From NCBI GenBank assembly GCA_963833425.1, contig CAWHXP010000003.1, positions 160,001 to 224,000 of the forward strand: a stretch of DNA of 64,000 bases. The letters are read 5' to 3'. Position 1 is the first letter of the stretch; each line of letters starts with the position of its first letter. Origin of the DNA: an uncultured Methanosarcinaceae archaeon (GTDB lineage Archaea; Halobacteriota; Methanosarcinia; Methanosarcinales; Methanosarcinaceae). The notes beneath the pieces are model-generated. The model had not been told where the DNA came from and did not search any database. It saw only the letters and a program-made list of their open reading frames with translations. This document shows positions 8,242-21,833 of this stretch, one piece after another. The position numbers and the translations under genes were made by a program.

Positions 8242-8790
8242 ATGATCCCTAAAAAAGCGTTTGTGACAAAAGGTACCGGGGTGCATAAGGACAGATTAGC
8301 ATCTTTTGAGCTTGCACTGAGGGCTGCTGGAATAGAAAAATACAACCTTGTAAGTGTTTCAAGCATTCTACCTCCAAATTGTAAAATCGTACCTAAGGAA
8401 GAAGGACTTTTACAGCTAAAACCTGGTGGCATTGTCCATTGTGTGCTTGCAAGGAATGATACTAACGAACCACATCGTTTGATGGCTTCAGCTATAGGAA
8501 CTGCTCTTCCAGTAAATGAAGAAAATTACGGTTATATTTCTGAACATCATTCTTTTGGAGAAGAAGAAATTATTGCTGGAGAATATGCGGAAGACCTGGC
8601 AGCAACAATGCTTGCAACTACTTTAGGGATAGAGTTTAATGCTGAAATGGCCTGGCATGAGAGAGAGCAGGTGTATAAAGCTAGTGGTCACATATTTGAC
8701 TCTTTCCACATTTGTCAGACTGCAAAAGGCGATAAAGATGGTAAATGGACAACAGTAGTAGCTGCAATGGTCTTTGTTACTACAAACTAA
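8242..8790 (+). CDS. pdaD: Pyruvoyl-dependent arginine decarboxylase
   Basis: SFELALRAAGIEKYNLVSVSSILPP with the SS self-cleavage site; AGGAG RBS. Confidence 0.93.
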   Translation: MIPKKAFVTKGTGVHKDRLASFELALRAAGIEKYNLVSVSSILPPNCKIVPKEEGLLQLKPGGIVHCVLARNDTNEPHRLMASAIGTALPVNEENYGYISEHHSFGEEEIIAGEYAEDLAATMLATTLGIEFNAEMAWHEREQVYKASGHIFDSFHICQTAKGDKDGKWTTVVAAMVFVTTN

Positions 8791-8799
8791 AGAATGAGA

Positions 8800-8939
8800 C
8801 TAGTGGCATTATGCTTAATTTTCGATAAGATAAAAAATTTAAATAATTTGTTGAGTAGGTAATTTCAATATCGAAAGCCAAATTAGACACATAATGCAAA
8901 AATTTAATTTATAATTTACAGAAAATTCGAGACACTACC
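8800..8939. mobile_element. Possible IS1-type MITE (about 140 bp)
   Basis: Ends CTAGTGGCATT and TCGAGACACTACC (revcomp GGTAGTGTCTCGA); similar ends at 40894-40997. Confidence 0.4.
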
Positions 8940-9569
8940 GAAAGAGGGAATTAAAGAAAAATATAGGGCTAGAATGGTAGCAGGCTTTGCACATTATTTC
9001 CCTCAACTTTTTCAATATCACAATCATAATTTCGATGTCTCATCAAACTGCAGTGGTTGGGTATGTTCACACCACTAATCCGAATATCTATAAATTGTTC
9101 AAAGTCAAATTATTTCATTTGCATGCATGCTTTTTTTGCGTCATTTTCTAGAGGTTTATCCGTTTTTGCATGGACAGTACGTTATGGATAAAAACATTCC
9201 AAAATTGTTCCCTTTTTTATTTTCAAACCAAAACAATTAAGTTAGCTTTGTAAATGCCCAAATATTCATTTCTTTTTTGCAGTTATCAATATTTTTTCCC
9301 CTGAATTACTAGTCTGTGGTACCGTGTGGTACGTACTCAGGAAAACAAATAAATTTACTGAAGAAATTCGATCAATATACCGTCATCAAGTTCAAAGTCG
9401 GAAAAATCCCTAACACTGCTGTAAAATAAGTATTTCAAGTATAATGATTAATCAGCTTCATGTCTGCCTCTGGAAACTTTTTTGTTAAAATATGAACTCA
9501 AAAATGATACAAAAAATTCCGATTAATTAAGGAATCAATTTCAGCAAGTTTATCTACAACTAACTAAAT

Positions 9570-10186
9570 ATAAACCTGCATAAGTACCGCTGGAAACCCT
9601 AAAACCAGCCATAGAGAAATAAGGAATCTTTTCAAAACTTGTGTTCTTGGTGTTCAGTATGGACTTGGTGCAGAGGCTCTTGCATTAAAAATTAATAAAT
9701 CAACCCCATGTGCAAGGGAACTTTTGAGCCATCATAAGCGTTTATAAAAAAATTTGGATATGGGGTAATAGCGAATGGACTCAAGCGTGCCTTAGGAGAA
9801 CGATCGATACCTGTTTCAAATGGCGAATGGCTGTAAAAGGCCCCTGTAGAGAGGAATTGTTAACTGTAAGAAACTCTCCTGTTCAAGCAACAGGAGAAGA
9901 GATCTAAGAGTTGCCTGTTTTCGTCTCACTGAAAATAATATCAAATTAATTGCGCTGATCCATGATGCAATGATAATTGAATGTGAAGAAGAAACAGCAG
10001 ATGAAGGGATTTAAAAAGCTCGGAAAATAATGTCAGATGCTGCTGAAGTGGTGCTTGGATTAGGAAATCGGTTAAGAACTGAAGCTGAAATCACACTACC
10101 TGGACAGATACATAGTTAAAAAAGCAACTGAAACTTGGCGTTTGATCATGAAGATTTTAGAAGAGATTAAAGAAGAAAGAATATAG
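9570..10186 (+). pseudogene. Family A DNA polymerase, C-terminal half (pseudogene)
   Basis: 9601: KTSHREIRNLFKTCVLGVQYGLGAEALA (motif B); about 9860: TVRNSPVQATG; about 9950: LIALIHDAMIIE (motif C); ends TWRLIMKILEEIKEERI*. Several stops and frameshifts. Confidence 0.8.
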
Positions 10187-10226
10187 GGAAGACTAATTTC
10201 AATAATTTCCGTTTGGTCTAATCTTT

Positions 10227-10271
10227 GAATTTAGCTGCAGAGCAATATTAATTAGCTGCGCAGCTAAATTC
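10227..10271. repeat. Nested inverted repeat / palindrome
   Basis: GAATTTAGCTGC (10227-10238) pairs with GCAGCTAAATTC (10260-10271); perfect 16-bp palindrome TTAGCTGCGCAGCTAA at 10252-10267. Confidence 0.8.
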
Positions 10272-10897
10272 TAAAGCCTTCTAATACCTGTTTTACTACT
10301 TATATATCTCTAATATATCTCTTTTTTTCTTCTTGATATTTAAAAATAATATTAAACGGGGTAAAATGATTGTTGAATTCTAAAGATAAAATAAAAGGAT
10401 ATTTCATACCCCAGATGCCTTCAGAATGGATTGTAAAGTTACAGTCCACTTCAGTGGGGCATACATACAGAGTGGCTATGTATATTTGACACTTAAAAGG
10501 GTGAAGAAATCTAAAATTTAGTAGTCACCTTAAAAGGTATAAATTCATTTTTACCTATTCCAGATTGGGCTTGTCCGAAAGCATTGGACGAATTAGAAAA
10601 ATGTGAGATGAGAAAAACGATACGAAAGCGCGGTAAAATTCCCACTGTATCTGTTTTATGCGACAATTGTTATGAAGATTATCCCACTTTAAAAATCCAT
10701 GATAAGTTAGGATCACGCATTTGAAATAAGAATCAAATACTTTAGACATTGTAATGTAATCAAAAAAGAACAAGCACAATAAATGCTGCAGTTTAAATTT
10801 GAAAGTTAGATATATAAGGGTTCTTGCTATTAATTTTTTAGTCCAATTGCATAAATTCTATACCTATTATGTCATTTTTGTAAAATTTGACGTTTTT

Positions 10898-11140
10898 TTA
10901 TTTTTTAAGTTCCCATGTAAGCGTTACGTTGATATTAGCTTCTAGGCTTGCCTTAGTTATTAACGCATTTCCCTCGCTAGTGAGCTTTAGACCAAATGTT
11001 GACTCTACCTTAGATGGTCTGGTACTCTCAGGAACTTAATTCATTGTGGCTACTATGTATGTCGCCATTTGATGTATTGTATTCATTGCACTATTTAGAG
11101 CTTCAGCCGATTTATCTTCAATCTCTTTCAGTGAAATTAT
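10898..11140 (-). pseudogene. Trypsin-co-occurring domain 1 (Trypco1 / CU044_2847-like) fragment
   Basis: ISLKEIEDKSAEALNSAMNTIHQMATYIVATMN*VPESTRPSKVESTFGLKLTSEGNALITKASLEANINVTLTWELKK*; the P..VE..FGLKL..E....I.KAS.EAN..VTLTW signature is characteristic. One internal TAA, N-terminus missing. Confidence 0.75.
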
Positions 11141-11202
11141 CGCATTAAATGTTATATTTAATTATTTGATGTGACTCTTAGTAAGCTAAAGTGGAAAAGA
11201 GG

Positions 11203-12030
11203 ATGAAGTAAATAAGTCTTGAAGCATGCATTTTTCAAGTTATGGATTCTCAGGACATTGTCGGAGGTACGGGTTTTGTCCTCAGTCCAAATTTAGTTGT
11301 AACTTACGCCCATGTTGTGAAAGACTGCAACACCGGAATAGGTGAATTATTAACTTATTCTTCTATCCTAAAAAAACCAGGTTGGAAGCAGAGATATTAC
11401 GTGATGGTTGGAACGAGGAGGAGATGTTGCTTTCCTACGATTGAATAATTTTTCTCTTCTTAATAACCATGTGGCTAAAAAGCTAGGAACATTAGGATCT
11501 ACAAATGAACTCCAACAGGGTTTTCACCTCTATGGCTATCCAGATATAAGAACAGATTTAAAGGGTACTTTGGGTAGGTCAGATCATAGGACAAGTTCAT
11601 AAAAAACTACTTAATGGGCAGCTATTAGGTCTTTTAGAGTTCTTTTCCGAAACTGAAATTAAGTTACTTCTGGGGTAATACGAGTACATAGGGAGGGAAT
11701 AAGAATTTTACCTTTAACTGGCAATTTGACACCAGTTGTTGGGCCGTTATTACGCACTTTAGAAAGTAATTCTGATCCGGGAACTGCAGTTTCGGTTACA
11801 TTTGATGGGAATTATGCTGTTTCAGATTCCGGTGACGACAAACTAAAGTTTGGGATCTTAAAACAGGAAATGAATACACACATTAAAAGGTCATTCTGAT
11901 CGAGTTTCATCAGTTTCCCTCACCTCCGATGGAAATTTGGCTGTCTCAGCTTCATGGGATAAAACGCTTAAAGTCTGGGATCTTAAAACAAGGGCAGAAG
12001 TCAGAACCTTAGCAGGTCATTTCAATTGTA
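11203..12030 (+). pseudogene. Trypsin-like peptidase - [internal deletion] - APAF1-like helical linker - WD40 repeat protein (pseudogene)
   Basis: GGTGFVLSPNLVVTYAHVV (catalytic His), DVAFLRL (Asp), GYPD; then GQLLGLLEFFSETEIKLLL and ILPLTGNLTPVVGPLLRTLE; WD40 repeats such as LKGHSDRVSSVSLTSDGNLAVSASWDKTLKVWDLKT. Stop at codon 3 and several frameshifts. Confidence 0.75.
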
Positions 12031-12070
12031 GAAATGGTTTGAATTTTAAATTTTGTAGAGGATGTTAGTA

Positions 12071-12958
12071 ATGCCAAATCAACTGGAAGATGAGGATTGG
12101 GACCTCCTTCTTCGGAGAATCAAGGATAAAAAGTGTACTCCCTTTCTTTGGACCCGGAGCTTGTGCTGGAAAGATCCCTGTTGGTTCCCAGATTGCAAGT
12201 GAATGGGCAAAAAAGTATGACTACCCAATGGAAGACTCTGATGACTTGATAAAGGTGGCTCAGTTTGTGGCTGTGACCAAAGACGCTATGATTCCAAAGG
12301 AGGAGATGTGTAGAAAAATCAATGAACTGTTAAAAAAGTCCCACAAAAATACTTTGAAACTTCTGATGAACTTCATGGAGTGCTAGCCGATCTCCCATTG
12401 CCAGTTTATGTCACCACAAATTACGATGACCTTATGGTGCGAGCTCTTAAAAGCCGTGGCAAAACACCAATCCAGGAAATATGTCGGTGGAATGAATACT
12501 TCAAGCGACGCAAACCAACGTCAGACTATGTTCCTACTCCAGAAAAACCTTTAATATATCACCTCCATGGCTGCTATGAAATGCCAGAGTCGCTGGTTCT
12601 AACAGAGGACTACTATCTGGACTTCCTTGTTGCCACCTCAATGAAACAAAACCTGCTTCCTCCGCGTATTCAGAAGGCATTTACAGATTCATCTCTTCTT
12701 TTTCTAGGCTACAGGATAGCTGATTTGGGTTCCCAAGTTCTTTTCCGGATTCTTGCTGAATACTTAGAAATAGGTGATAGAATGCACTATTCCATGCAGC
12801 TTGTGACAGAGAATGTTCATGAGGCAAAAGAAGAAAGAGCTCAGAAATATCTGGATCGCTATTTTGAGGAGTCTAATATCAAGGTACACTGACACGATTG
12901 CCGTGAATTTGCCGTAGAATTGAGAAAACTATGGGAGGCTTTCAATCGTGGTCCTTGA
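12071..12958 (+). pseudogene. Stand-alone SIR2-like (SIR2_2) NADase (pseudogene)
   Basis: MPNQLEDEDWDLLLRRIKDKKCTPFL/GPGAC, VYVTTNYDDL, IYHLHG, LVLTEDYY, LLFLGY. Frameshifts near 12148 and 12340-12380, premature TGA at 12890-12892, natural stop at 12956-12958. Confidence 0.85.
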
Positions 12959-14090
12959 ATTCCAGGCTTACGTGGGCCCTCTACCTTTTGAAGAGAAACA
13001 TAAAGCCATTTTTTTCGGGAGACCGTGAAGCTCGAGATCTCCGGTCCTTAGTCATTGCGCATCGTTTGGTTCTCGTCTATGCCCAGCCGGGTGCAGGTAA
13101 GACTTCACTTATCACTGCAGGGCTTATTTATCTCCTGAAAGAAAAACAGTTTGAAGTTCTCCTTGTGGCGAGAGTTAAAGGCACACTTTTTGGAAATATA
13201 AAATCTGAAGAGATCTCAAACATATTTGTCTTTAATACTCTTACAAGCTTGGCTAAAGATGAGCATGATGTTGAGCGCCTTGCTAAAATTAAACTTGTTG
13301 AGTTTATGAAAGAACAGAAGCATATGCATGATGACAATGGTATGGCATTACTCCATGTCATCATCTTCGATCAGTTTGAGGAAATATTCACTTCGTATCA
13401 AGACCGCTGGAAAGATAGAGAGGAATTCTTTGAGCAAGTAAACATTGCTCTGGAAGCAGATCCCCTTTTAAGGGTAGTTTTTGTCATAAGGGAGGATTTC
13501 ATATCTCAGCTAGATCCTTATGAAGATCATCTACCCGAAAAAATGTGGTTGAGTTATCACATAGAGCGCCTGCGCCGTAATGCTGCCCTGCAAGCAATCG
13601 AAAGGCCATTGAGAGATACTAGTCGCTCTTTTGCGGAAGGCGTGGCAAAAAAAACTTGTCGATGATTTGCTGGAGAGTCGAGTTGAGACAATGAACGGCG
13701 AGATCGCTGAGATAACAGGAGAATTCATAGAAGCTGTGCAACTTCAGGTAGTATGCAAGAACATCTGGCGGGATTTACCATTAAATGAAAAACTAATCAC
13801 GTTTCAGCATCTGAAAAAATATGGTAATTTTTAAGAGGTACTTTACAGGTTTTACGAAGAGGCTATAAAGGCAGCGGTAGAGGAGACAGGCATTGATGAG
13901 TAGAGCCTGCGCAGATTTTGCAATGAAAAGTTAATAACGAAAATAAGGATGCGGGGGACGGAGTACCGGGCTCCAGAGTTCACTTGTGGTATTTCCAATC
14001 CAGCTATTGACGTTCTTGAAAGCAGGCACCTTATTAGAGCAGAGTCGCGGGCAAATGCGCTCTGGTATGAACTGGCACACGACATTATAC
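12948..14090 (+). pseudogene. nSTAND1-family P-loop NTPase (pseudogene, sensor domain absent)
   Basis: GTG 12948: QAYVGPLPFEEKHKAIFFGR/DREA; YAQPGAGKTSL (Walker A); IIFDQFEEIFT (Walker B); VVFVIREDF; VQLQVVC; WYELAHD. Two frameshifts, TAA at 13832, TAG at 13901. Confidence 0.85.
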
Positions 14091-14245
14091 ACCGGACCAT
14101 CATGTTTGAGAGGATTTCAATTTTTTATAAGACCTGGAAATACCATTCCATAGCATAATCTAAGAGTTATTTGCTTTGATATCACTCTTTCTCTGCTTCC
14201 TTTCTCTACCTTACCAACTGGGATTCCAAAGATGTTTGATGCAGT

Positions 14246-14540
14246 CAACATTATGAAGGAAAAATTATCTCATTAAATGTAAGATGGTACCTAAAATATT
14301 CATTGAGCTATAAAAATTTAGAGGAGATGATGGCAGAAAGAGGAATAAAAGTTGATCACACTACTATAATTAGATGGGTACATCGATATTCTTCTGAGAT
14401 GGAAAAGAAGGTGCTTAGACATTTAAAGCCAACTAATGACTCTTGGAGAGTGGACGAAACCTGCATCAAAGTAAAAGGTGAATGAAAATATCTTTATCGT
14501 GCAGTTGATTCAGCTGGGAATACAGTTGAATTTATGCTAA
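14246..14540 (+). mobile_element. IS6-family transposase fragment
   Basis: VRWYLKYSLSYKNLEEMMAERGIKVDHTTIIRWVH...SWRVDETCIKVKGE*KYLYRAVDS; no TIRs seen. Confidence 0.85.
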
Positions 14541-14664
14541 GGAATTGTAACGAAATAACTTAAGTAATCAATTATTCTGTTTGAAGAAAATCGGTTAAGA
14601 CATCCATAAAAACGGTTAGGTACATTGCAAAAATTGACTTAAGGTATTTCGCGGCAAGCACTAA

Positions 14665-17253: not shown

Positions 17254-18385
17254 GAGGATTTCGATAAACTTCGGATTTTATTTCTTAGCAGTAATTTCTC
17301 AGATCTTCCCCTCAATTTCTCTATTTAATCCCTCTTTTTGGCTCTACTATTCTCAATTCTTTGATTTTAAAGATAGCTTCCGCTATCTTCAATATACTTT
17401 TTTTATTTCCAATGTCCTCAATTGATGGAGATTATAACAAAAAGCCGTACACAACATTTTTAGATTTACTCTTTTAACAGTAGTAACAAAAACTCTTCCT
17501 GCTTTGAAAATTTCTTTCGTTACTGAATAAACTCTTTCCCCTGGGACTCTTTTTGAGCTAATTCTCTTATTTCTTAATATATCCTTTATTCCCAACGTAT
17601 GTCCTTTGACCGCTCTTTTCATTGTTATATTATACCCTTTCGTTTTTGCTCCAAAGTATCCTCTGTCCTTATAAACCACTTCATTTTCCTCTGTCAAATC
17701 TACATACGAATCATGTACTGACGCAGTTGTTGTTTGAATCTTCTGATCAGCTCATAATCTCTGTCTATTATATTATGAAGCTTATATCCAAAGTGAGACT
17801 TACCTCCCTTCTTTGTCCAGGTTCCGTCTCTGTTTCTTCTTGTTTTTGCCTCATCTCTCTGCTTTTGCATGTCATGGATCTGAATGGATAAAAGTAACAT
17901 CCTGAATCAGTCCATGCTTTATCTGGAAACCCAGAGTATCAAGTTGGCTTTGCAACTTTTCCCATATTTTCTTTGAAATGCTCGATAATTCTCTCCCTAA
18001 ATAGCCATACAGTAGTACTGTAAGGTATGTATTCCGGAAATCCAAGGAATTTCCTAAAAGAAATTCGATCTATACACTGTTTGTCAAGTTCAAAATCAGA
18101 GAGCACATGCCATTGTTGTAAAACAAGCATTTTGAACATCACAATGACATCAGTTTCGGATCTCCCTCCTGAAACGGTTTTGTTAATATACATAGACTCA
18201 AGAATAATACGAAACGCTTTCCAATCAATTCATGAATAAATTTCAGCAAGCTTACCTCCAACAGATTCAAGACGTTTATACTCTTCTTTAAGAGCAAAAT
18301 CAGTAAGAGTTTTCATGAATATACATAAATATTGACAAATTTAAAGTCAACCATGCTCATGAGCATGGAGTTTATCGAAATTCTC
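17254..18385 (-). mobile_element. IS5-family element (IS5 subgroup), transposase frameshifted
   Basis: TIRs GAGGATTTCGATAAACT / AGTTTATCGAAATTCTC; 4-bp TSD TGTA (17250-17253, 18386-18389); fragments MFKMLVLQQWH.LSD, DGTWTKKGGKSHFGYKLH, VYKDRGY. Confidence 0.92.
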
Positions 18386-19359
18386 TGTAGAATACAATTT
18401 AAACATTTGTATGCTTGGAGTTCTCGTCTTTCAAAAACAAGATATAATATCAACCAAATACTACATAGGACCAAAAAATTCAATATTTAGATATCAGATC
18501 CTGAAAATTACAAATCGTTCCTACAATTGCTGTGACATCTTGCAGGGTCACAGAAAGGATTACATAATTATTATTTTACTAGATAAACATTAATTAATTT
18601 TAAGTAGTGACAAATAATATAGTTGTTTTGGGTCTTTACTGTAGTTATTAAATTACTAAGTATGCTTATATTCGCCTTTAAGAACAAGATCAACAAAGGT
18701 CTCCATAAGTAATAATTATTGTCAATAGGTTTAAAGATCTCCCATATTCAAATAATAGGAGTCCATAAGGATTCTCTATGAAATTTAAGCGAAAAAGATC
18801 TCTAGCGCTTCTATCACTATTAATGAATATATAAACTTAAAGATATACTTCAAAAAACAAAAAAAAAAAATCATAACATCATTTCGTGGAGAATAAACAT
18901 AATTCCTCTTATAATTTCAAAATGTGGAATATTGTAGAGCGATTACACAAATTTGAATTAAGGTTTATGGATGATTTTTGTGAACTATTGAGGTAAAATT
19001 TTAATTGAATAAGAATGATCTTTTTTGGCTCAGCAAATCTGAACCACTGTTTTAACATTAAATTAAATTGTTAAATTAGGACTGAATCAAATTTTTCCTA
19101 GGTAAAAGATAAAATTGTTTAGCTTTCAAAAGAGTAGGTGAATAGTCACATTTTCGCTATTATCAAAAGCAGTGAAAATTTAAATATAAATAAAAAATAA
19201 TTATAGTAATATATCTGTTTTGTGAAATAAAGTAGAATGGATTTCCAAAATGAAAGTTTTCACAATCAAACAATTGTAAAACAAATAAAGGACAGTTTGT
19301 ACCGCTTAATATAATAAGCAACTTAATATACATGATTTACACAAATATTTTCGATCACC

Positions 19360-20850
19360 GTGTCAGAGCAAAGAAGTATACCTCTAAAAGAGCATCTATT
19401 AACCCTGAAGTCCTGCAAGCATGGAGGGCTAATTCAGGAAACTTCTGAGACTTACGGGATTCCTGAAAGCGAAATTCTTGACTTCAGTACAAACTTAAAT
19501 CCCCTAGGAAATCCCTTTGAGAATAAGGAAAGCGGATTAAACTTGGATAGCCTTCTCAAAAAGAGTATCGGAAAACTTATGGAGTATCCAGATAATAGGT
19601 ATCTCGAGTTTAGGGAAGCTGCTGCAAGGTTTATAGGGCTCGGAGTAACTCCACTGAATATTATTCCGGGTAACGGTTCCACGGAAATCATCAGGCTTTT
19701 AGTCGAATGCCTGGTTGAAAAAGGGGATAGCGTTCTTCTCCCATGGCCCACTTTTGGGGAATATGAAACGCAATGCCAAATTATGGGAGCAAGACTCGAA
19801 TATCCCAAACAGGAAGATATAGAAACACTTCCGAATGAGGTTCTTGAGAGAGCAAAAATCCTTTTTATTTGTAACCCGAATAACCCAACCGGAAAGCTCC
19901 GTACCAAAGAAGAAATTAAAGCTCTTGCAGAGCGTTGCAGAAATTATGGAACGCTTCTTTTCGTAGACGAGGCTTTTATCGAACTCTCTGCCCCATCTCA
20001 GAGTGTTGCAGATCTAGCAGCAATAAATAACTACGTTTTTGTTCTTCGCTCCCTTACGAAGGATTTTGCAATTCCAGGAATAAGGATGGGCTTCGGAATA
20101 GCTTCCTCTGAAATGGCTGAAATCCTAAATGCCTCAAGGCTCTCCTGGAACCTTGGTACCGTGGCAAATGCTATAGGAACTGCTCTTCTTAACATCGAAG
20201 GCGGTATAAATAATCCATATCTAGAAAAAGCAAGAGCTTTAATCAGAGAAGAAGGAGGAAAACTCAAAGCTAAACTCGACAAAATTAGGGGATTCGAAGC
20301 AGGGGAAGCAAATGTAAATTTTATTTTTGTTGATATCAGCAAATTCATTCTTGATTCCAGCAAATTGAGTGCATGCCTTGCAGCTCGTGGAGTTCTTATC
20401 CGGGACTGTGTCTCTTTCCGGGGCCTTGGAAAAGGATACATAAGAATCGCAGTCCGGACAGCAGAAGAAAATGACAAGCTCATTGCTGCAATAGGGGATG
20501 TTGTTTCCCAGTGGGGCAAAGAACAGGCAAAGAATGAACTACAGAATGTAATTGAAAAAGCCTCTGAAATAGAAATTGAAGGTAGAAAGACCTGTGAATA
20601 CTATCCCTGTCATTTTGAAGGCCAAAACTGTACTTTCTGCTTCTGTCCTTTTTATCCGTGTGAGAACGAATGCACAAGGGGGAAGTGGATAACAAGTTCA
20701 GGGGGCAGCAAAGTATGGAGTTGTATAGACTGCCATATTGTTCACAATAAGGAAATAGCCCGAAAAATTCTTGACAGCCTCATGCAGAAAGGAGATGCCG
20801 ATGAACTTGTGAAAATAGCCTGGAAAAAAGTGGTGGAGCCGAGGTTATGA
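19360..20850 (+). CDS. cobD: L-threonine-O-3-phosphate decarboxylase with C-terminal cysteine-rich domain
   Basis: HGG, DFSTNLNPLG, CNPNNPTG, DEAF, RSLTKDFAIPGIRMG (PLP lysine); C-terminal CEYYPCH...CTFCFCPFYPC...CIDC. Confidence 0.92.
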   Translation: MSEQRSIPLKEHLLTLKSCKHGGLIQETSETYGIPESEILDFSTNLNPLGNPFENKESGLNLDSLLKKSIGKLMEYPDNRYLEFREAAARFIGLGVTPLNIIPGNGSTEIIRLLVECLVEKGDSVLLPWPTFGEYETQCQIMGARLEYPKQEDIETLPNEVLERAKILFICNPNNPTGKLRTKEEIKALAERCRNYGTLLFVDEAFIELSAPSQSVADLAAINNYVFVLRSLTKDFAIPGIRMGFGIASSEMAEILNASRLSWNLGTVANAIGTALLNIEGGINNPYLEKARALIREEGGKLKAKLDKIRGFEAGEANVNFIFVDISKFILDSSKLSACLAARGVLIRDCVSFRGLGKGYIRIAVRTAEENDKLIAAIGDVVSQWGKEQAKNELQNVIEKASEIEIEGRKTCEYYPCHFEGQNCTFCFCPFYPCENECTRGKWITSSGGSKVWSCIDCHIVHNKEIARKILDSLMQKGDADELVKIAWKKVVEPRL

Positions 20851-21833
20851 TTATACCAGATAGCGGCCACTTGGCTCTGGTACTTTTGCTGGCAACAACT
20901 ATAGACATCGTTTTTGGAGAACCTCCGGCTGCTGTGCACCCGGTTGTATGGATGGGAAAATTAATTAATTTTCTTAAAAATATAGCTCCAAAAATCCACA
21001 GAAAATTTTATGGAATTATAATGGCTCTCTGTTGTGTTTTTTTCGCAGCTTCACTTGGTTATTTGGTTCTATACATTGCAGCTCTCCCTGGAATTCCAAG
21101 TATTATTGCACTCTTTATAGAAGCTTATTTCTTGAAGGCTACATTTGCCATCAAAAGTCTCCTTAGTCCGGCAAGGGAGATTTACAAGCACCTTGAAGAA
21201 AACAGGCTTGAAAAAGTCCGGGAACTACTCCCTATATACGTAAGCCGGAACACTTCCAAACTGACCAAGACCCAGATGTCTTCTGCAGTTATCGAATCCG
21301 TATCCGAGAATTACGTAGACTGCATCTTGAGCCCCATTTTATATTATGTTCTTTTCGGAGAATTCGGACTTGTCGCTGCATATGCATTCAAAGCTATAAG
21401 TACCCTAGATTCCATGGTTGGATATACTACCAAACAGTATAAGGAACTTGGGTACTTCTCGGCAAAATCAGATGATGCATTGAATTGGATTCCGGCTCGA
21501 ATATCTGTTATATTTATTCTTGCAGCAGCTCTTATAGTAGCTATAATCCCGAAAAAGCAAGGAAAGATAAACCCCTTTAATAGTATCAGGAGTGTCCTGG
21601 AAGATGGCATGAAAACCCCGTCTCCTAATTCCGGTTACCCTATGGCTGCGACTGCAGGAGCTCTCGGAGTCAAACTCGAAAAACCTGATCATTACATTTT
21701 GGGAGCATTATACCCTCCCACTGAAATAAAGGATATAAAAAGAGTATCCCAATTAATAGCAATTGCTTCAGGATTCTCACTTGCTGCCTTTATGGCAGTA
21801 ATTCAGATAGCAGAGATTCATTCATGCCTATAA
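20847..21833 (+). CDS. cbiB: Adenosylcobinamide-phosphate synthase CbiB
   Basis: GEPP..HPVVWMG, ESVSEN.VD, TLDSMVGY, NWIPAR, SPNSGYPMA. Confidence 0.93.
   Translation: MIIPDSGHLALVLLLATTIDIVFGEPPAAVHPVVWMGKLINFLKNIAPKIHRKFYGIIMALCCVFFAASLGYLVLYIAALPGIPSIIALFIEAYFLKATFAIKSLLSPAREIYKHLEENRLEKVRELLPIYVSRNTSKLTKTQMSSAVIESVSENYVDCILSPILYYVLFGEFGLVAAYAFKAISTLDSMVGYTTKQYKELGYFSAKSDDALNWIPARISVIFILAAALIVAIIPKKQGKINPFNSIRSVLEDGMKTPSPNSGYPMAATAGALGVKLEKPDHYILGALYPPTEIKDIKRVSQLIAIASGFSLAAFMAVIQIAEIHSCL

Follow-up and report, generated by a model that had tools for sequence, protein, structure and literature searches.

Positions 10898..14090 of a 64,000-nucleotide (nt) stretch of DNA from an uncultured Methanosarcinaceae archaeon (hereafter the window) hold four relics of conflict-system genes lying side by side: Trypco1 on the minus strand and, on the plus strand, a trypsin/Apaf-1-like/WD40 gene, a stand-alone SIR2 gene and an nSTAND1 NTPase gene. 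We consider it likely that these are the remains of two separate, neighbouring and inactivated modules for conflict or defence, each with a STAND NTPase, from a Methanosarcinaceae-type archaeon: module A with Trypco1 and the trypsin gene (10901-12023) and module B with SIR2 and nSTAND1 (12062-14084). The locus is a genuine gene graveyard, and both modules are of already described, fairly ordinary kinds. The original prediction, made from the letters of the DNA, had described the four relics as fossils of NTPase-dependent conflict and defence genes; its domain calls were right, all four genes are broken, and the relics lie where it had placed them, with scores far beyond chance. The features are the following, with the relatives used to delimit them labelled L (loci) and P (proteins).

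10901..11161, minus strand: Trypco1 (Pepco) pseudogene, from Pfam PF19493 and the alignment to L004.
11203..11598, plus strand: trypsin-NB-ARC-APAF1_C-WD40 pseudogene, 5' part, protease-domain residues 1 to about 134, from tblastn with P0243, P0244 and P0245.
11599..12023, plus strand: trypsin-NB-ARC-APAF1_C-WD40 pseudogene, 3' relic with two WD40 repeats, from the alignment to P0245 and the WD40 Pfam match.
12062..12958, plus strand: stand-alone SIR2 pseudogene (ThsA-like NADase family, about 297 residues), from the SIR2_2 Pfam match and the alignment to L002.
12945..14084, plus strand: nSTAND1 NTPase pseudogene, residues 1 to about 380, from PF20703 and tblastn.
14240..14482, plus strand: IS6-family transposase fragment, residues 4-82 of 202, from NCBIfam NF033587 (transpos_IS6), E=1.2e-30.

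The longest stop-to-stop frame across 10400-14600 spans no more than 252 codons, and Pfam was scanned on 16 stop-to-stop pieces, eight of which matched no family at all. The models expected by the original prediction matched for Trypco1, WD40, SIR2_2 and nSTAND1, while Trypsin_2 stayed below its threshold (E=7.9e-4 and 20.6 bits against a cut-off of 27.6, on 11212-11445) and neither NB-ARC nor APAF1_C found a match among the 16 pieces. The identity of the trypsin relic is secured because three relatives, P0243, P0244 and P0245, align to it by tblastn at 49-76% identity, in three frames, over 11203-11355 (68-76%), 11346-11423 (54-58%) and 11423-11566 (49-51%). These relatives were reached by phmmer with the 65-residue second trypsin piece, which returned three matches, two of them trypsin proteins; P0243 led to the full-length relatives, and the third match, P0242, is a cadherin-repeat protein that was judged spurious. 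P0244 (685 residues) carries Trypsin_2, NB-ARC, Dark_WHD and APAF1_C, and P0245 (1376 residues) begins with Trypsin_2 and includes a long WD40 array.

Read along P0245, residues 1 to about 134 correspond to 11203-11598 through frames +1, +3, +2 and +3, the relic resumes at about residue 653, and it ends at residue 796, that is, at 12023 (residues 679-751 on 11672-11890 and residues 745-796 on 11868-12023, each at 60%), with further frameshifts near 11672, 11836 and 11874. Residues from about 135 to 652 have no counterpart in the window, an internal deletion of about 520 residues that took with it the Ser motif, NB-ARC and most of APAF1_C. What survives beyond the deletion is the last 45 or so residues ahead of the propeller and two WD40 repeats (11740-12023; WD40 Pfam E=3.6e-12 on 11874-12065); a further 580 or so residues of WD40 are gone from the 3' end, as the WD40 region of P0245 extends that far beyond the two repeats of the window, on a reading of the sequence with repeats uncounted. 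At the other end codon 3 is replaced by TAA (11209-11211). Aligned to P0243 and P0245, the protease relic keeps its His and Asp motifs and has lost the Ser region, leaving the His-Asp-Ser triad incomplete. The earlier description of this gene as trypsin-APAF1-like-WD40 was therefore right as to the family, to judge from P0244 and P0245, but the Apaf-1-like NTPase itself is deleted in the window.

Trypco1 was defined, in the available part of the source, as a gene that co-occurs with trypsin in conflict systems dependent on NTPases (Kaur et al. 2020, PMC7159879), and the available part of a 2025 preprint equates Pepco with Trypco1/2 (10.1101/2025.11.14.688446). The relic matches PF19493 on 10901-11035 of the minus strand (E=3.9e-11; 43.9 bits against a cut-off of 24.6; model positions 61-97 of 98), and residues 38-107 of the Trypco1 protein of L004 (108 residues, PF19493 E=1.1e-22) align to 11128-10910 on the same strand with 27% identity (E=3e-4). 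Approximately the last 70 of some 108 residues are kept and the first 37 or so are missing; with TAA in frame at 11036-11038, the window holds no intact small open reading frame (ORF) of about 100-117 residues. The Trypco1 and trypsin relics stand head to head on opposite strands, 42 nt apart (11161 versus 11203), so that a Trypco1 gene does lie beside a trypsin gene. NCBIfam names Trypco1 (CU044_2847 family) and the IS6 fragment, and no other part of the locus.

Within module B, SIR2_2 (PF13289) matches 12326-12889 (E=6e-24), residues 1-299 of the SIR2 protein of L002 align to 12062-12952, and, as in relatives, the natural stop of the gene (12956-12958) overlaps with the beginning of nSTAND1. 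In the PDB, the SIR2 profile matches structures of the NADases ThsA (6lhx, 8bto), 7uxt and KomC. The motifs TTNYDD and HLHG can still be read in the relic, in invariant or nearly invariant columns of the SIR2 alignments A1 and A2, which by analogy with ThsA would be catalytic. The adjoining NTPase relic matches nSTAND1 (PF20703) on 12907-13662 with E=4.3e-23 and nSTAND3 (PF20720) with E=1.2e-3 (19 bits, under the cut-off of 27.2), and its Walker A (GAGKTS) and Walker B (DQFEE) motifs are readable in invariant or nearly invariant columns of alignment A3; the NTPase region had no match in the PDB. By tblastn, its residues 1 to about 380 traverse frames +3, +1 and +2 from 12945 to 14084. Full-length nSTAND1-WD40 relatives have 1041-1310 residues, and the whole sensor half (about 650-900 residues) is gone from the window copy: no C-terminal sensor repeats of the WD40, TPR or FGE kinds were found, nor any WD40 of that gene downstream of 14084. 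Homology ends exactly at 14084 in all nine loci that reach the right end (blastn, ten high-scoring matches, two of them in L001). This cut is probably connected with the IS6 element, whose fragment, already noticed on this side in the original prediction, starts 156 nt past the truncation point.

The pairing of SIR2 with nSTAND1 extends far beyond the window. Alignment A1 was searched in one-genome-per-species contigs, yielding 374 confirmed stretches; 77 loci were analysed, of which, by their record titles, 11 are archaeal (ten Methanosarcinales-type, one Methanoperedens) and the other 66 come from bacteria of at least ten phyla. The nSTAND1 piece of the window matches 75 of the 77, the exceptions being L003, whose contig ends just past the gene, and L074. 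In 69 of the 77 loci the nSTAND1 match lies 0-400 nt downstream of SIR2 on the same strand; the distance grows to about 1.2-1.3 kilobases (kb) in L005, L008, L009 and L011 because SIR2 is there fused to a CHAT domain, it is 699 nt in L010, and in L046 the gene order is reversed. An intact SIR2 of 270-340 residues adjoins an nSTAND1 ORF of at least 450 residues in 43 loci, and the predicted ORFs overlap in 39 of these, a count that is inflated by the placing of ORF starts at the first start codon. Across the same 43 loci the distance matrices of SIR2 and NTPase are correlated (Mantel r=0.67, with none of 2000 permutations as high), shared ancestry contributing to the value. A single protein of 770 residues, P0026, has nSTAND1 fused to SIR2; apparent fusions in L032 and L034 proved on a frame check to be frame artefacts of ORF calling. 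The sensors are WD40 in close relatives and TPR or FGE-like in others. Because of this adjacency, the correlated distances and the fusion in P0026, SIR2 with an nSTAND1-sensor gene is a conserved, self-contained two-gene unit of archaea and many bacterial phyla, and the conservation of the operon together with the one fusion protein suggests that the two products may bind each other.

The genes that accompany this pair vary. A SIR2-CHAT protein of 506-544 residues, with a caspase-like C-terminal domain, is encoded upstream of nSTAND1-WD40 in seven of the 11 archaeal loci, namely L003, L004 (9722-11332), L005, L006, L008, L009 and L011, and in L006 it stands ahead of a second, stand-alone SIR2. 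Two tandem stand-alone SIR2 genes precede one nSTAND1 in L048, L052, L053, L058, L059 and L072. A conserved predicted membrane protein (median about 214 residues, in no Pfam family) is encoded directly upstream of SIR2, or downstream in L075, with seven full-length copies among the 77 loci (L002 9224-9706, L023 9060-9701, L040, L043, L054, L064 and L075) and three fragments; the Atlas places it in unnamed clusters only, and tblastn against the window, the one search made there for a remnant of it, gave one weak match at chance level (E=4.2). In three bacterial loci, L020 (8281-8907), L028 (9054-9701) and L038 (9063-9701), SIR2 is directly preceded by an ORF of about 210 residues that matches Response_reg weakly (E=1e-8 to 2e-11) and may be another accessory gene.

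Trypco1 and trypsin genes are rare company for module B. The neighbourhoods of the 11 archaeal loci were scanned with Pfam (55 ORFs), as were 109 of the 175 ORFs within 2.5 kb upstream in 52 other loci; neither a Trypco1 nor a trypsin gene is among those 109 ORFs, the neighbours being heterogeneous. The N-terminal 720 residues of P0245 match L004 and L017 only among the 77 loci, and neither the second trypsin piece nor the first WD40 piece matched any of these loci in direct tblastn. Among the archaeal loci, Trypco1 with a Trypsin_2 ORF directly upstream of SIR2-CHAT occurs in L004 only, with frameshifted relics of both genes in L008; the two look like the same ancestral locus. Even in L004 the trypsin ORF is frameshifted, its GFSG motif lying in another frame. 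Among the loci scanned, Trypco1 and trypsin genes near module B were thus seen in two Methanosarcinales lineages only, that of the window and that of L004/L008. L017, an Anaerolineales bin, has an unrelated Trypsin_2-HEAT-KAP NTPase gene (18567-20531) 8 kb downstream of SIR2/nSTAND1, preceded by a 105-residue ORF in no Pfam family.

Several observations weigh against reading the locus as two self-contained modules. The Trypco1 relic is opposite in strand to the trypsin relic, whereas in L004 Trypco1 lies upstream of trypsin on the same strand, and the published Pepco example also has the small gene upstream of the protease gene (the same strand being assumed there). The L004 locus, with its decayed counterpart L008, is a second Methanosarcinales lineage in which Trypco1 and trypsin lie upstream of SIR2-CHAT and nSTAND1-WD40, so that the two kinds of genes have become neighbours on at least two occasions; moreover, no NTPase that would go with the L004 trypsin lies between the trypsin gene and SIR2-CHAT. 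Finally, the ORFs that were not scanned comprise three recurrent families, those of more than 700 residues and most minus-strand ones above about 150 residues, and the downstream flanks of the 66 bacterial loci were checked by tblastn only, which is insensitive for Trypco1.

The first of these points bears on the integrity of module A. The Trypco1 relic might be unrelated to the adjoining trypsin gene, having served a lost protease gene on the minus strand or having arrived by inversion, as its opposite strand, its missing 5' end and its position 42 nt from the trypsin start would allow and as the co-directional pair of L004 might lead one to expect. Such an origin seems to us unlikely, if worth keeping in mind: Pfam on the pieces of 8908-10857 detected no remnant of a protease or STAND gene to the left of 10898, by tblastn trypsin-STAND proteins match nowhere but at 11203-12155, and Trypco1 is, in the available part of its source, defined by adjacency to trypsin genes (PMC7159879).

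The remaining points bear on the separation of the modules. The original prediction had proposed one module joining a protease arm to an NAD-depleting arm, in which STAND sensing would drive both the protease/Trypco1 pair and SIR2, all four genes making up one multi-component system. In its favour, the window and L004/L008 each have Trypco1 and trypsin immediately upstream of a SIR2-type gene and nSTAND1-WD40, no NTPase belonging to the protease is found near the L004 trypsin, and several effector genes are stacked ahead of a single nSTAND1 in Methanosarcinales loci, as the frequency of SIR2-CHAT among them illustrates. A co-linear arrangement is seen in L004/L008, in the order Trypco1, trypsin, SIR2-CHAT and nSTAND1, but Trypco1 and trypsin are themselves pseudogenes there, and none of the 109 upstream ORFs of the 52 other loci is either gene. 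The trypsin gene of the window, furthermore, belonged to a family in which the protease comes with an NB-ARC/Apaf-1-like NTPase and a WD40 sensor in the same protein, from which it follows that the protease arm had a STAND switch of its own, and SIR2 and nSTAND1 directly adjoin each other in the 69 loci counted above with no protease gene among the scanned upstream ORFs. Nucleotide homology of SIR2/nSTAND1 to related loci begins at 12023-12060, and the contact of the WD40 relic with SIR2 at about 12023 is a deletion scar, so that the present contact would not give the original distance between the two modules. On these grounds there is little evidence for a single system, which we regard as improbable. 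Much the same doubt attaches to a wider version of it, according to which one Methanosarcinales nSTAND1-WD40 sensor would serve a battery of effectors (SIR2, SIR2-CHAT, trypsin with Trypco1) in a widespread, uncharacterised, split Avs5-like operon, the window being one such multi-effector system; we would assign this a low probability, and we retain the view that modules A and B were separate neighbours.

That both modules are inactivated follows from the lesions themselves. The SIR2/nSTAND1 part was read against the intact L002 copy, to which it is 85.7% identical in nucleotides, and differs from it by four frameshifting insertions or deletions (+1 nt at 12147 and -1 nt at 12336 in SIR2; -2 nt at 13019 and +1 nt at 13647 in nSTAND1), two in-frame deletions of 3 nt, and three nonsense substitutions (TGG to TGA at 12890-12892 in SIR2; GAA to TAA at 13832 and AAG to TAG at 13901 in nSTAND1). 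The events at 12147, in a run of T, and at 13647, in a run of A, are single-base homopolymer frameshifts that could be due to slippage or to read errors, and the other lesions are independent of both. Taken together, nonsense substitutions, frameshifts, the internal deletion of about 520 residues and the two 3' truncations leave all four genes dead. Module A cannot function here, having lost its NTPase, its catalytic serine and most of its sensor, and nor can module B, whose sensor is gone and whose two genes both carry stops and frameshifts. A quick maximum-likelihood tree of 48 NTPase domains puts the nSTAND1 piece within the Methanosarcinaceae clade (Shimodaira-Hasegawa-like approximate likelihood ratio test, SH-aLRT, 99), with an end branch of 0.34 compared with 0.05-0.11 for the other seven rows of that clade, a length that fits relaxed selection.

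It is most improbable that the organism itself has intact genes and that the breaks arose as errors of sequencing or assembly, for although two of the four frameshifting events of module B are single bases in homopolymers, such errors would have to explain also the three nonsense point substitutions relative to L002, the TAA codons of the trypsin and Trypco1 relics, the -2 nt deletion at 13019, the internal deletion, two truncations of about 580 residues or more each and the long end branch of the nSTAND1 piece, in a window whose flanking housekeeping genes are intact and which elsewhere holds 37 intact ORFs of at least 150 residues. The closest copy, in L007, is 87% identical in nucleotides and is itself in pieces. 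In other Methanosarcinaceae bins, L001 (over the whole locus, with several eroded copies) and L007 (9734-14323) show eroded or insertion-sequence-interrupted copies of SIR2/nSTAND1 beside intact ones, which suggests that these modules turn over repeatedly within the family. Methanosarcinaceae, then, carry and repeatedly lose NLR-like conflict systems, copies in L001, L004, L007 and L008 being eroded as well.

How the intact ancestors may have worked can be pictured from characterised systems. In module A the WD40 propeller would sense an invader-derived ligand, the Apaf-1-like NTPase would then oligomerise, and the fused trypsin domain would clip the small Trypco1/Pepco protein, which in its clipped form would become a membrane-damaging beta-barrel. 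We carry this scheme over from the Pepco-Avs4 pair of Streptomyces: in the available part of the preprint, the STAND-fused trypsin of the Streptomyces subrutilus trypsin-Avs4 protein removes the C-terminal tail of its Pepco partner, and truncated Pepco is lethal to Escherichia coli and assembles into beta-barrels that show membrane-active features, consistent with a pore (10.1101/2025.11.14.688446). Module B would have been a two-gene operon, with a gene for a ThsA-like SIR2 of about 297 residues ahead of an nSTAND1-WD40 gene that abuts or overlaps it, in which the triggered nSTAND1-WD40 sensor would recruit or activate the separately encoded SIR2, and SIR2 would hydrolyse NAD+ and thereby bring the infected cell to a stop. 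This we infer from the analogous Avs5, a fusion of SIR2 with a STAND NTPase; as described in the available part of the source, Avs5 carries its PF13289 SIR2 and its nSTAND3 NTPase on one polypeptide (PMC12931631).

As far as the sources at hand go, module A shares with the Pepco and protease-fused STAND pairs a small Trypco1-family gene beside a gene for an N-terminal trypsin, a STAND and a repeat sensor (10.1101/2025.11.14.688446, PMC7159879). It differs from the Pepco-Avs4 pair, as the available part of the preprint presents it, in that its NTPase is NB-ARC/Apaf-1-like with WD40 rather than Avs4 (10.1101/2025.11.14.688446), in its archaeal host, in the opposite strand of Trypco1, and in being wholly pseudogenised, with the Ser motif and NTPase deleted. 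P0244 and P0245, with NB-ARC, APAF1_C and WD40, resemble the prokaryotic Apaf-1-like WD40 STAND proteins of the Gao-lab survey, a protease replacing CARD; in the part of that survey available to us, however, the proteases are caspase-like and mainly cyanobacterial, whereas here they are trypsin-like and from Methanosarcinales, with fragments only in the window (PMC12803255).

Module B has the same ingredients as Avs5 (AVAST type 5), namely an NADase-type effector of the SIR2_2 family (PF13289), an NTPase of the "novel STAND" kind and a sensor made of C-terminal repeats, with presumed NAD+ depletion, in so far as the available parts of the sources describe them (PMC12931631, PMC11897194). Unlike in Avs5, the SIR2 is a separate gene upstream (in the window and the 43 intact loci), P0026 being the only fusion and in reverse order; the NTPase is nSTAND1 rather than nSTAND3, as the respective scores given above indicate; and the sensors of the close relatives are WD40, those of others TPR or FGE-like. 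Module B would thus work like a split Avs5, yet its separate genes and its nSTAND1 domain place it outside Avs5 membership. The best PADLOC (E=4.4e-15) and PDB similarity of its SIR2 is to ThsA of Thoeris, but the match covers the SIR2 part only (profile positions 11-237 of 478, for the window piece and the full-length relatives alike), with no SLOG and with a STAND partner instead; a TIR partner (ThsB) was detected neither here nor in any of the 11 archaeal loci that were scanned. The nSTAND1 conflict systems of Kaur et al. (2021, PMC8195603) share the NTPase clade and the logic of an N-terminal effector or effector-associated domain with a variable C-terminal sensor; in their supplementary file 1, however, "SIR2" occurs eight times, never as an adjacent SIR2-nSTAND1 operon, and none of the 19 Euryarchaeota rows (one of them Methanosarcina) has nSTAND1.

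PADLOC 2.0 matches were confined to the SIR2 domain (ThsA, PDC-S25, LmuA, Dsr1/2), CHAT and repeat parts, and no model of that release matched the nSTAND1 NTPase domain or the four-gene combination, in keeping with the earlier view that the combination is not a named system. No description of the SIR2-nSTAND1 operon was found in the searchable literature, although the supplements of the STAND survey (PMC12803255), which lay outside the scope of the search, may cover it. The locus of the window consists of decayed representatives of known kinds, with the split SIR2 and nSTAND1 operon as a modest side lead; being non-functional, it is of limited direct value. Intact pairs exist elsewhere, for instance in L006, which is Methanosarcina hadiensis (SIR2 at 9713-10633), and in L002, a Methanosarcinaceae bin (SIR2 at 9734-10633), and these are candidates for a STAND sensor that activates its effector in trans.

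The surroundings of the locus are themselves worn. A PolA relic had been proposed on its left side, beyond 10898, and was not confirmed: 11 pieces of 8908-10669 gave no Pfam family at E<=0.01. From 9 to 19 kb, between pdaD (8242-8790) and an aminotransferase/cobD pair (19336-21833), the window is gene-poor and rich in relics, and pieces of an IS4/IS5-type transposase pseudogene lie at 17392-18229 on the minus strand (DUF772, E=3.9e-15, with weak DDE_Tnp_1 matches).

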